From NCBI GenBank assembly GCA_951406725.2, contig OX597840.1, positions 248,001 to 312,000 on the forward strand: 64,000 nucleotides of DNA, in the 5' to 3' direction. The notes under the pieces were generated by a model, which was given only the letters and a program-made list of their open reading frames with translations, searched no databases and was not told where the DNA came from. Of the stretch, positions 1,275-40,184 are shown one piece after another. Numbering within the stretch: the first letter of the stretch is position 1; each line of letters opens with the position of its first letter. The position numbers and the translations under genes were made by a program. The DNA is from Octopus vulgaris (Eukaryota).

Positions 1275-1469
1275 AACCACCACCCACCACCACCACTACC
1301 ACCACCACCATCACTACTACTACTACTACTACCACTACTACTATTACTACTACTATTACTACTACTACTACTACCACCACCACCACCACCACTACCACCA
1401 CCAAAACCAGCGCCAGCACAATCACTACCACCATTACTACTACTACTACTACTACTACTGCTGCTGCTG

Positions 1470-1515
<46 letters not shown>

Positions 1516-5573: not shown

Positions 5574-6132
5574 TGATAAGTTATATATATGAACAAGCTG
5601 AAAACGCCGAAGCCCGTATTTATAACTGTTTGCTTGTAGCAAGCCTGAGAGCCTCTCTCTGTGTATGTGCACTTATATAAAAAAATATTACATACTGGAA
5701 TGTACCACAACCCGTACACACCTGTGTACTTTATACGATTGCTTGTATATATATATATATATGATATGTACGTGTGTTTGTTTCTCTGTGTGTGTGTGTG
5801 TCTATGTATCTGGCTCCATGGGTGTGTTTCTATGTATCTAGCTCCATGTGCATGTGTGTTTGAATGTGTGTGTGTGTGAATGCATTAGTGTATTAATCAA
5901 GCAGCGAGTTGAGGCAGTGAACTCTGTAACCGGTTGTAATTACTAAACTACCGCTGACATGTTTGGACGACATCCATAACCTCTGCTATCACAATCCTGC
6001 ATGCAGGTGAACCTTCTCCCATGCCGCCGTAGAATCATTTCGTCAAATCAACTCTACGTGGCACAAGTTGAGCTTCCTTTTCTCACTTTATCATTATCAC
6101 CCTCTTTATGTATGTATGTATCTTTAAACACA

Positions 6133-6201
<69 letters not shown>

Positions 6202-6348
6202 CATAAAATGCATTTATATATAAATATATATTTACACATGTTTATATATATACATACGTACATGAATATATGTATATATATAAACATATACATGTATAAG
6301 TATATACACTCTACAATATATGTGAGTGTGTGTGCATATATACATATA

Positions 6349-6414
<66 letters not shown>

Positions 6415-6450
6415 GGTATGTATCTATCTATCTATATATATACATATAGT

Positions 6451-6682
6451 AAGGCGGCGAGCTGGCAGAAATGTTAGCGGGCGGGGCGAAATGCTTTGCG
6501 GTATTTCGTCTGCCGTTACGTTCTGAGTTCAAATTCCGCCGAGGTCGACTTTGCCTTTCATCCATTCGGGGTCGAGAAATAAAGTACCAGTTTCGCACTG
6601 GGGTCGATGTAATCGACTTAATCCGTTTGTCTGTCCTTGTTTGCCCCCTCAATGTTTAGCCCCTTGTTGGCAGTAATGAAAC
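6451..6682 (+). mobile_element. tRNA-derived SINE family A, full length
   Basis: aaggcggcgagctggcagaaatgttag (A-box-like) and gagttcaaattcc (B-box-like); more than 10 related copies in the window. Confidence 0.9.
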
Positions 6683-6732
6683 ATATATATATGCATATAG
6701 CTGTTTTGCTTATATATATATGCAATATAATA

Positions 6733-7125
6733 AAAAAACAGCCCCCCAAACAGACACATGTATACATATATACACACACACTCACACCATTCTGACCTCC
6801 ATACAGACACACATATACACACACATGCACACAAATAGCACCATGACAGATGCCAATCACACACATACACACACACACACAACACCATACACACACCATC
6901 CCACCAAATTTTAAAAAAATACACATCTATTTTTACCACAATGGACCCTGGGACCAATCAAAAACAGCCCCCCCACACAAACACATGCATACATATATGC
7001 ACTCACACAAAGACACACACACCCACACCATTCTGACCTCCATACAGACACACATATACACACACATGCACACAAATAGCACCATGCCAAATGCCAATCA
7101 CGCACATACATACACACACACAACA
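6733..7125. repeat. Tandem duplication of a ~225 bp CA-rich unit
   Basis: aaaaacagcccccc...cacaccattctgacctccatacagacacacatatacacacacatgcacacaaatagcaccatg recurs at ~6733 and ~6960. Confidence 0.85.
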
Positions 7126-7464
7126 CCAAGACAATCACACACACGGTTGACAAACTGGCACACATATACACACACCATCCTACCAGATTATACAAACACA
7201 CAGACACATCTATTCACACCACATATGTATATACACACTCACTCGAACCATTCTGACCTCTAAAGACCAATCCCCCAAATCATTGATGCGTGAAGGAGAG
7301 ACAAAAAGGAGAAATTCTTTTCAGTTCCACATTACTCCTCCTTCCCCCCACCCAAACACACCTACAGTGTCCCTTGAAATAGATAATATTCTTTTACGTT
7401 AACATGGTGAACAGGTCAGTTTTAGCTTCCCTACTATTATAATGTAAACCTTTTTGAACTCATA

Positions 7465-7891
7465 ATATTCTATGCATGTATACCAATATTCCACTGAACT
7501 TTTTAATAATTCCTTCTGGAAGCTATCTTTTACATTTTCTTGAGAATTTGTTGTAATCTTTTGTGCCCAATATTTCAATGAACTTGTTAAAATATTTTAT
7601 GTTCTTAGCATGCTCTTGTCACCAAAGAATGTATATATATGTATTGTAGTACTTGTGACAACCAATATTCTGTGCGTGTTTGAATATACAGATACAATAC
7701 CAATATCCCACTGAACTTTTTAATAACTCCATCTGGAAACTATCTTTAACATTTTCTTGAAAATGTATATTTATGTTGTAATATTTTGTGCCCAATATTT
7801 TAAGGAACTTGTTAAACTTTCTTATGTCCTTAACATGTCCTTGTTATCAAAGACTGTATATATGTAATGTAGCATTTTGTAACAACCAATA
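7465..7891. repeat. Diverged tandem duplication (~200-230 bp units) upstream of an HHR-like motif
   Basis: ccactgaactttttaataa...ttttgtgcccaatattt...acaaccaata occurs twice. Confidence 0.8.
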
Positions 7892-7916
7892 ATTAACGCA
7901 ACCAAACTTTTACATG

Positions 7917-7960
7917 TTACTTTTGACAATCTTTTTCCAAAGAGTGAAACCGTAAAGTAA
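7917..7960 (+). ncRNA. Minimal type-I hammerhead-like motif, U3-A8 variant
   Basis: ttactt-TTGACAA-TCTTT(ttcc)AAAGA-gt-GAAAC-C-GTA-aagtaa: 6-bp stem I, 5-bp stem II, compensated 3-8 pair, 2 extra nt before GAAA. Confidence 0.55.
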
Positions 7961-7999
7961 ATAAACATCTTTTAAAATTGCATTTTCAAACATTCTTTC

Positions 8000-8093
<94 letters not shown>

Positions 8094-8498
8094 TCTTATG
8101 TATGTATGTGGATATAACATTGAATATAACTACATATAGTCACTCTCTCTCTCTCTCTCTCTTTCTCTGTCTCTGTCGCTACACACACACACACACACTG
8201 CAGTATTCTGTTATTCCCGTCCGGAGCCCATCATTCACTCTTTCAACACCTCTGTGCCCCAAGGGACCAGTAAAGGGCTGCATCACTTCGTCATCGTTAC
8301 TAATGCCTGAGAGTTTTCCAGTTTATTTCCAAGTATGACTAGGGGCTTCGTGGTACGTGTGTATATATAATTGCGTGCATTTATACATCACAAGAAAACA
8401 TTTCTCAGCCGTGTTACTGTTATTCCGTCTCAATGTTACCTCTCTAGGATCTAATTGATATATATATAGTTTAGATCAAATTGTCATCTCGGTTCCAT

Positions 8499-20971: not shown

Positions 20972-21415
20972 AAGGCGGCGAGCTGGCAGAAACGTTAGCA
21001 CGCCGGGCGAAATGCTTTGCAATATTTCGTCTGCCGCTACGTTCTGAGTTCAATTTCCGCCGAGGTCGACTTTGCCTTTCATCCTTTCGGGGTCGATTAA
21101 ATAAGTACCAGTTACGCACTGGGGTCTATATAATCGACTTAATCCGTTTGTCTGTCCTTGTTTGTCCCCTCTGTGTTTAGCCCCTTGTGGGTAGTAAAGA
21201 AATAGGTACCAGTTACGCACTGGGGTTGATATAATCGACTTAACCCGTTTGCCTGTCCTTGTTTGTCCTCTCTGTGTTTAGCCCCTTGTGGGTAATAAAG
21301 AAACAGATAAATTAAGTACCAGTTACGCACTGGGGTCGATATAATCGACTTAATCCGTTTGCCTGTCCTTGTTTGTCCTCTCTGTGTTTAGCCCCTTGTG
21401 GGTAGTAAAGAAATA
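20972..21415 (+). mobile_element. SINE family A with its 3' half present three times
   Basis: gtaccagttacgcactgggg...tttagccccttgtgggta occurs three times. Confidence 0.9.
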
Positions 21416-23171: not shown

Positions 23172-23322
23172 AAATAAGCAACAAGAATAACTTCGGTAAT
23201 TTGGTACGATCGTTTCACGCTACATCATTTTAAAACTGTTGTAATACTTACAATATTTAATAAAATGATGTAGCATGAAACGATCGTACCAAATTACCGA
23301 AGTTATTGTTGTTGCTTATTTT
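23171..23322. repeat. 62-bp near-perfect inverted repeat carrying the HHR 3' half GAAACGATCGTA
   Basis: 23171-23232 versus 23261-23322, two mismatches. Confidence 0.85.
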
Positions 23323-23466
23323 TTATTATAATCACCCCATGGATTTATATGGATAACACCATACAAAATTCTGGTGCATCTAACTTAAGTACCATATCCA
23401 TTTGAATCTAAATTTTGCTGAACTTATATATATATATATGCACTTTATTAATAAAGCTGCAAATAT

Positions 23467-23656: not shown

Positions 23657-23744
<88 letters not shown>

Positions 23745-23953
23745 AAAACTATACAGGATAAGAAAAATTATAGAATTTTTTTCTACCAGTGGACTAGAAT
23801 ATACATTATTCATATGAAATTAGTGTACATTTAAACACATAAGAGGTGCCTTGACAGGACACTTAGCATGCTAGAAAGACCAGTCAAAATCCAAACCACG
23901 GTTAGGGGTAATTTCGAAGGGAATGAAATAAAAACATTTACCATATTTTGCTA

Positions 23954-24020
23954 CCGGACCATGGTTTCGAACTTTAATTAGCAAATAAAATAATTTGTTA
24001 GGCGAAGTTCTCATCAGCGG
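23954..24020 (-). ncRNA. Canonical type-I hammerhead ribozyme motif
   Basis: Reverse complement: ccg-CTGATGA-GAACTT...AAGTTC-GAAAC-CATG-GTC-cgg; all core nucleotides canonical; predicted cut between 23957 and 23956. Confidence 0.85.
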
Positions 24021-24347
24021 ATACGCCAAAGATTAACATAAAATTATGAGGCAGAATAGCGCATGTCTCATCTTTATATATTATAATTTTTGCTGCCGAA
24101 GGCATTTCGCCTGGTGCGCTAACGTTTCTGCCAGCTCGCCGCCTAAGACCTCTTCTCTTCTGAGGATCGAATTCTGGAGGTGGTGCATTTCTGTACACCC
24201 GCAAATGCTATTCTCGCATTCAGTCCATTGCCCTGCTTGCCACTACAACGTAGCACAACAAGCAAGCTTGCTAGTGCCATTACAATTGGAATTATAAGAA
24301 CAGAAGATAGAACGATCAAATATTTATTTTCTAGTAAACGTTAGAGT

Positions 24348-24864
24348 GTGGAGGCGCGTGGCTTAGTGGTTAGGGTGTCAACATGAGGATCGTAAGATTG
24401 TGGTTTCGATTCCTGGACCGGGCGACGGGTTGTGTTCTTGAGCAAAACACTTCATTTCACGTTGCTCCAGTCCTCTCAGCTGGCAAAAATGAGTAACGCT
24501 GCGATGGACTGGCGTCCCGTCCAGCTGGGGAACACATACGACATTGAAACCGGGAAACCGGGCCCATGAGCCTGGCTAGGCTTTAAAAGGGTGCATTTAT
24601 TTTAGTGGAGGCACGTGGCTTAGTGGTTAGGGTGTCAGCATCATGATCATAAGGTTGTGGTTTCGATTCCTGGACCGGGCCACGCGTTGTGTTCTTGAGC
24701 AAAGCACTTCATTCACGTTGCTCCAGTCCACTCAGCAGGCAAAAATGAGTAACGCTGCGATGGACTGGCGTCCCGTCCAGCTGGGGAACACATGCGCCAT
24801 TGAAACCGGGAAACCCGGCCCATGAGCCTGGCTAGGCTTTAAAAGGGTGCTGTTATTTTATTTT
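24348..24864 (+). mobile_element. Dimer of tRNA/CORE-like SINE family D
   Basis: Units start at 24348 and 24605 (gtggaggc..tggcttagtggttaggg..ggtttcgattcc); one TSD taaacgttagagt at 24335 and 24865. Confidence 0.9.
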
Positions 24865-39966: not shown

Positions 39967-39997
<31 letters not shown>

Positions 39998-40024
39998 TGA
40001 TGTTTGGGAATCTCTGATGTTTTT

Positions 40025-40109
40025 TCGGCTGATGAGTACGAGCCACCTATATTTACTGCAATTTTTGTAGCTTTATTAAAGATGTCCTCGTACGAAACAA
40101 TTGTACCGA
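40025..40109 (+). ncRNA. Canonical type-I hammerhead ribozyme motif
   Basis: tcgg-CTGATGA-GTACGAG...CTCGTAC-GAAAC-AATT-GTA-ccga; 7-bp stem II base; predicted cut after 40105; in a ~143-bp island between (TA)n tracts. Confidence 0.87.
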
Positions 40110-40139
40110 TATATTGATCCATTCTTGTTGCTTTTCTCC

Positions 40140-40184
<45 letters not shown>

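Follow-up and report, generated by a model that had tools for sequence, protein, structure and literature searches.

The window analysed here comprises 64,000 nucleotides of the microsatellite-rich, 2.8-Gb genome of Octopus vulgaris, i.e., positions 248,001 to 312,000 of the forward strand of contig OX597840.1. At 39997..40139 (plus strand), a 143-bp insert is embedded in a (TA)n tract, with an (AT)14 stretch (39970..39997) on its 5' side and a (TA)7 stretch followed by (TG)n (40140..40154) on its 3' side. Both borders allow some latitude: the T at 39997 is assignable to either side, and the first TAT of the downstream tract equally represents the next three bases of the inserted element itself.

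The insert harbours a type I hammerhead motif of 85 nt (40025..40109, plus strand), oriented in sense relative to the ORF of the element described below. As read from the sequence, the motif consists of (i) stem I (TCGG, 40025-40028; CCGA, 40106-40109), (ii) the catalytic core CUGAUGA (40029..40035), (iii) a 7-bp stem II with G10.1-C11.1 (GTACGAG, 40036-40042; CTCGTAC, 40087-40093; spanning 40036..40093), (iv) a 44-nt loop II containing a further 6-bp hairpin (CTGCAA, 40056-40061; TTGTAG, 40065-40070), (v) GAAA (40094-40097), and (vi) a stem III formed by a self-complementary 8-mer (40097..40104), the predicted dimer interface. Applying hammerhead numbering, cleavage is predicted after the A of the GUA triplet (40105..40106), leaving 34 nt (40106..40139) up to what is termed here the short 3' end of the family; in full elements, this stretch is the start of a 208-nt leader preceding the ATG. 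CUGANGA, GAAA and a NUH triplet, which define type I hammerheads, are present in order, and all features named in the initial annotation (stems, core, TA tracts, 85-nt length and extra hairpin) are found at the above positions. A general type I descriptor yields two matches in the real window versus a mean of 0.015 per local shuffle (n = 200), with 197 of the 200 shuffles free of any match, so the motif is not a product of chance.

The view that the motif represents a perfect, canonical hammerhead holds with respect to its reality, but is overstated with respect to its structure. In the 85-nt fold, pairing probabilities amount to 0.61-0.94 for stem I and 0.95-0.99 for stem II, compared to 0.04 for stem III, which comprises only 2 bp in the monomer versus 8 bp in a dimer. 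The minimum-energy fold of the full 143-nt strand is not a hammerhead and its stability is no better than that of shuffled sequences (z = +0.72). Together with the weak monomeric stem III, this argues for a real motif that is not a perfect monomeric hammerhead. Rfam reports no hammerhead family across the full window at gathering score, and none around the motif at E-values up to 10. As to the loop 1-loop 2 contact, constrained folding provides just a weak, interrupted extension of stem I.

The insert is a member of a dispersed repeat family. An exact 20-mer occurs 580 times genome-wide (reversed control, 0), and the 3' half of the ribozyme, searched with four loop III bases left free, has 950 genome matches. 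From a search with a 96-nt motif, 40 of 1,273 candidates were scored and contained at least 42 matches, 12 of them identical over all 96 nt. Copies share upstream sequence for variable lengths, and longer ones were retrieved by an RT-seeded search. Over 143/143 nt, the insert is 98.6 % identical to L031:8348-8490 and L032:8352-8494, the 3' ends of two such longer copies, in which the same 143 nt are located ~1 kb downstream of an ORF ending in a GIY-YIG domain; L032 additionally carries an inverted RT fragment upstream. Based on this identity, the stretch 39997..40139 is assigned to the youngest subfamily of a Hydra-type Penelope-like element (PLE), as its 5'-truncated 3' end (pLTR).

The organization of the complete element is evident from two copies of a sister subfamily, L095 and L096, which are 88-91 % identical to the window over the insert stretch. 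Their stop-free ORFs (1,071 and 1,072 codons, respectively) are 99 % identical in DNA and start 208 nt past the hammerhead cut. In L096, a second hammerhead follows 1,295 nt past the stop codon, resulting in a unit of 4,722 nt; a partial upstream copy (2694-2785) equals 7416-7507, i.e., sense hammerheads in direct pLTRs flank the ORF. The 3' hammerhead of L095 is not contained in the retrieved stretch, the match breaking at 7212. Hence the unit reads, in order, hammerhead, 208-nt leader, 1,072-codon RT/GIY-YIG ORF, ~1.3 kb of 3' UTR, and hammerhead. In the subfamily to which the window copy belongs, none of the examined copies showed an intact ORF. The insert corresponds to the 3'-terminal 143 bp of this 4.7-kb PLE, 5'-truncated in a (TA)n tract. 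By comparison with published descriptions, the element is a new family of a known kind; searches of the literature for octopus Penelope-like or hammerhead elements yielded no description of it, and it may already be catalogued in Repbase or Dfam.

With the domains cut out, Pfam assigns GIY-YIG at 23.1 bits (cut-off, 22.6) and RVT_1 at an E-value of 6e-4, below Pfam's cut-off, while the whole ORF and other long ORFs yielded no useful Pfam match. In a search with the RT region, 13 of 14 protein matches align over 89-96 % of the query region; one match, named from Octopus sinensis, is 65 % identical across one quarter of its query. The ORF at L096:2957-6172 (17 % Asn overall) exceeds its homologues by ~350 residues because of two Asn-rich inserts, which are in frame in both intact copies. 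An alignment with 9 of the 14 homologues displays RWR/RWK, DKT and a CxCx5C linker but no CCHH, and in the endonuclease CxxC before the conserved E as well as CxH after the conserved N; RWR is the form of the octopus element and RWK that of 7 of the 9 aligned homologues, DKT being present. RWK-like, DKT, CxCx5C, CxxC and CxH motifs, the missing CCHH and (TA)n targeting are diagnostic of the Hydra clade according to the available part of its description (PMC8557442). Insertion at (TA)n was found for the 3' ends of 110 out of 120 distinct copies covering the cut site, which were chosen by similarity to hammerhead, body or RT and not at random. The element likely belongs to the Hydra clade, an assignment based on protein motifs and (TA)n targeting, not on a tree. 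A first reading as a member of the Neptune clade was dropped after the motif comparison; the CX2-5CxxC linker and the CCHH finger (two cysteines between GIY and YIG) of Neptune/Nematis are absent from the ORF alignment.

As far as the available part of their description reaches (PMC8557442), Hydra-clade PLEs share with the octopus family the single ORF with RT and C-terminal GIY-YIG domains and the entire motif set (including the lack of CCHH), a type I hammerhead in sense orientation, located close to the 3' end and having a quasi-palindromic stem III, as well as (TA)n targeting, inverted 5' copies and a tail often restricted to one end. Several properties set the octopus family apart from the families covered there (PMC8557442): a unit of 4.7 kb versus 1.1-3.0 kb, its 4,722 nt thereby exceeding the <3 kb to which the clade tends, albeit not strictly; an ORF of 1,072 aa with two Asn-rich inserts; a stem III that is a perfect 8-mer; and a tail of ~120 nt compared to the 30-40 bp described for PLEs. 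Loop II is structured and 38-46 nt long versus 3-10 nt in 26/26 Hydra rows of File S2 (PMC8557442), a descriptor-derived table that may exclude long loops. The 2.5-kb Hydra-1_Obim of Octopus bimaculoides (PMC8557442, as available) differs in protein start and hammerhead, when compared by eye.

With the minimal hammerheads of metazoan PLEs, as described in the accessible part of PMC4209133, the octopus motif has in common the long helix II (7 bp), the short helix I (4 bp), G10.1-C11.1 and the small palindromic helix III. In both cases, most motifs are dispersed singly and derive from truncated PLEs, with some close inverted pairs. Unlike the set covered there (PMC4209133), the octopus hammerhead has no extra nucleotide between A9 and G10.1 and possesses a large structured loop II.

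The architecture is conserved across the family. Core and stems are intact in 81 of 103 whole copies, position 7 being the sole core base to switch among subfamilies (T 63, C 28, G 3, A 1). Loop II ranges from 38 to 46 nt in these 103 copies and keeps its inner hairpin; in older subfamilies, this hairpin persists with G-U replaced by G-C. In the self-complementary 8-mer of stem III, two positions are changed together in the sister subfamily, such that self-complementarity is kept; the two palindromic forms account for 83/103 and 12/103 whole copies. According to a hand count, 97 of the first 100 listed genome matches retain a palindrome (48 and 49, respectively, for the two forms) and 3 have a single change. 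Since the palindrome change represents one evolutionary switch, this pattern is suggestive rather than statistical.

Two copies fold as a double hammerhead at -38.6 kcal/mol compared to 2 × -14.9 kcal/mol, and from such folding, efficient cleavage is predicted for the dimeric hammerhead only. In the available part of the respective study (PMC4209133), metazoan PLE hammerheads with a helix II of 7-8 bp, a helix I of 4-5 bp and a palindromic helix III are of low activity; they were inactive as monomers and weak as dimers. The proposal that the insert would be the best single experimental target could thus not be upheld: the palindromic stem III and the folding in favour of a double hammerhead make a lone copy a poor target, weak monomer cleavage is predicted, and the same architecture was inactive as a monomer (PMC4209133). 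Yet, since an axolotl monomer of similar stem III design reached 22 % cleavage in an hour (PMC7229834, available part), the octopus monomer may not be fully silent. The element family is a better experimental object than the single copy in the window.

The 5' ends of the copies are scattered. Thirty unselected copies, all located on a single chromosome, keep between 22 nt and the entire examined 1,516 nt of sequence upstream of the cut, and 12 of the 30 keep ≤110 nt; accordingly, the 109 nt of the window copy represent ordinary truncation. Among the 120 distinct copies, 65 have a 5' inversion. At the 5' junction, (TA)n is present in 19 of 45 non-inverted, uncut copies (versus 12 % of window positions) and missing in the other 26.

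On the 3' side, (TA)n begins at one of two fixed sites in the 110 copies mentioned above: at a short end 25-49 nt past the cut (mode 34) in 65 copies, the window copy included, and at a long end 140-173 nt past the cut (mode 154-157) in 45 copies. The other 10 comprise 7 without tract (4 of which read through into the leader of a long copy), 2 at a locus edge and 1 other. Tail-out inverted pairs within 6.5 kb (n = 30) combine one short with one long end in 22 cases, whereas 1 was scored short-short and 7 were unclassifiable; 22 one-of-each among 23 classifiable pairs compare to independent choice with p = 1.4e-6. These ends fit the known PLE tail, albeit at fourfold length, and 5' truncation, inverted upstream copies and an optional tail at one end are PLE traits found in the family. 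Available literature on twin priming, inversion and tails of Penelope-like elements provided no count of such a one-end-each pattern.

The single short-short pair involves L126, where a long-tail arm (1290-1500, minus strand) carries (TA)n exactly at the short end site and the tail resumes after a short duplication. Being a long arm interrupted at the short site, it fits the one-of-each rule; the tract may stem either from a second insertion event or from expansion of the element's own TAT, raising the question whether some (TA)n arises during insertion. A counter-case is provided by L096, the outer arms of which are both short; at 6,594 nt apart, they are beyond the distance limit for pairs. 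In this locus, the inverted arm (1-2697 versus 5648-8322) duplicates ~800 bp of flank beyond the element end, so that the inversion could reflect either a subsequent fold-back or a feature of the assembly.

Based on the accessible part of its description (PMC11167929), the Poseidon element PAc of the green anole likewise has AT-rich targets, inserted copies spanning the cut site, and a tail defined by two fixed positions past the hammerhead at which RT starts. There, reverse transcription starts at two internal sites on uncut RNA, and the hammerhead needs the element's protein and is dispensable for insertion in vitro (PMC11167929). In both PAc and the octopus family, inserted copies run through the cut site, pointing to an uncut template. 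The octopus sites differ from those of PAc (PMC11167929, as available) in residing within the 5' leader (+34 and +155, with the ATG at +208) instead of the ORF, in being 120 nt apart, in the 3-nt match of the short site to (TA)n, and in belonging to another clade.

In view of the above, we consider the insert, at a probability of roughly nine in ten, to be the terminal 143 bp of a Penelope-like retrotransposon of 4.7 kb (likely Hydra clade), probably left in a (TA)n tract by reverse transcription that stopped early, with a hammerhead predicted to be efficient only as a dimer. The element's endonuclease (GIY-YIG domain) would nick (TA)n, whereupon its reverse transcriptase would prime internally, at +34 in case of the window copy, on RNA uncut (or re-joined) at the hammerhead; an RNA intact across the cut site would fit the ~118 copies carrying both sides of it. 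Copying would then proceed back through the ribozyme and stop 109 nt upstream of the cut, yielding 143 nt in all. The hammerhead may rather serve the full element by cleaving multi-unit transcripts upon pairing of two palindromic stem III strands, perhaps assisted by the element's protein. Having neither an ORF nor a partner in cis, the window copy itself is likely inert.

For the one-of-each ends, one may speculate about ordered two-site priming, with one protein-RNA complex nicking both (TA)n strands and priming at +34 on one and at +155 on the other, from the same uncut leader. This scheme is tentative and presently rather doubtful. If it applied, every two-armed insertion would receive one short and one long end, and the family, with its two intact ORF copies, would offer a tractable system for how PLE tails and inversions form, as well as a test of whether the element's protein turns on its own dimeric hammerhead, for which the structured 44-nt loop II could be a docking site.

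The initial annotation had likened the insert to a retrozyme monomer or a solo pseudo-LTR. A monomer of a non-LTR retrozyme, i.e., a small unit without coding capacity that undergoes cleavage by its hammerheads, circularises and is re-inserted as such, would agree with the type I hammerhead and its weak stem III within a short, AT-rich unit, and PLE pLTRs have been proposed as the origin of retrozymes (bioRxiv 10.64898/2026.07.22.740005). In the accessible part of their description (PMC7229834), metazoan retrozymes form tandem arrays of 150-450-bp units with a hammerhead in each; common to them and the octopus family are a low GC content and a type I hammerhead for which dimerisation may be required, whereas tandem arrays and a fixed unit are lacking in the octopus family, which is a protein-coding element. 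Indeed, the proposed search for tandem arrays detected none genome-wide: a spacing of 60-500 nt between two copies on the same strand occurs at only 2 loci, compared to 950 matches. Moreover, the scattered 5' ends (22 to 1,516 nt in the 30 copies) conform to no fixed unit, longer copies continue into the coding element, and one cut cannot release a unit, since the insert does not begin and end with a repeated sequence. A retrozyme monomer is therefore highly improbable, even though two direct mini-dimers exist. Of these, L151:1440-2200 (minus strand) has a 379-nt unit composed of hammerhead, leader and first codons, then back to pLTR, and L150:1250-1830 has a 275-nt unit with a direct repeat of the hammerhead; both are isolated cases of internal deletion or partial tandem and resemble material from which a retrozyme could start at a single locus. 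Contigs of four runs of guessed RNA status, aligned to the sister copy L001, contain family sequence and in some cases (X1 record 3, X4 record 17) span the cut by >31 nt on both sides. No joint closing a circle at the hammerhead is present in these contigs, which show neither expression nor its absence; the one back-joint (1263 to 1069) is located upstream, in the 3' UTR.

The solo pseudo-LTR of the initial annotation was correct in so far as the insert represents a PLE's pLTR end (98.6 % identity to L031/L032), but it is most likely a truncation product and not a defined unit. Recombination between both pLTRs of a once full-length insertion, in analogy to solo LTRs, could leave such a piece, given that the hammerhead region is found at both ends of full elements (L096). 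The 5' inversions in 65/120 copies and the continuum of 5' ends, with 12 of 30 unselected copies keeping ≤110 nt upstream of the cut, are those expected of truncated reverse transcription, rendering such recombination very unlikely. Least credible is a co-option of the window copy for cutting a host transcript through the locus. Its motif is intact and a dimer partner in trans could come from the transcripts of hundreds of other copies, but 81 of 103 whole copies are equally intact and no host gene was identified around the insert. As the window copy differs from other young copies at 2/143 nt, its intactness reflects youth rather than selection.

The locus itself is of little weight, since ~950 such ends of this known type of retroelement exist in the genome. 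What the family contributes is a Hydra-type PLE of unusual length that retains intact ORF copies and has a large, structured loop II as well as a 120-nt tail, the two ends of which are distributed one per arm in inverted insertions; it is a candidate system for studying the function of PLE hammerheads. The family also supplies genomic counts for a mechanism which, within the accessible part of PMC11167929, was shown in vitro for only one PLE, the anole PAc.

Further repeats were observed in the window and in the retrieved loci. A second, different type I hammerhead (23954-24020, within 23743-24090, minus strand) has a palindromic stem III, a 6-bp stem II, a 30-nt loop II and a (TA)n end 214 nt past the cut. 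It represents a distinct repeat family with 2,048 candidates, which seemingly has two 3' ends (~+140-158 and +214) that are split between the arms in several inverted copies; at one of its loci (L142), a GIY-YIG C-terminus sharing 35 % identity with the Hydra-type protein is encoded nearby. The stretch 23305-23407 (plus strand) of the window is a 77 %-identical tail fragment of a relative of the main family, seemingly adjoined by an inverted piece of the loop II region. Upstream of the element in L031 (329-2264), fragments of an unrelated LINE-type reverse transcriptase are present, which we take to be RTE/CR1-like. Tandem tRNA-like SINE-type repeats at 24348-24860 and 21099-21415 of the window, with periods of 256 nt and ~105 nt, presumably resemble octopus SINEs.
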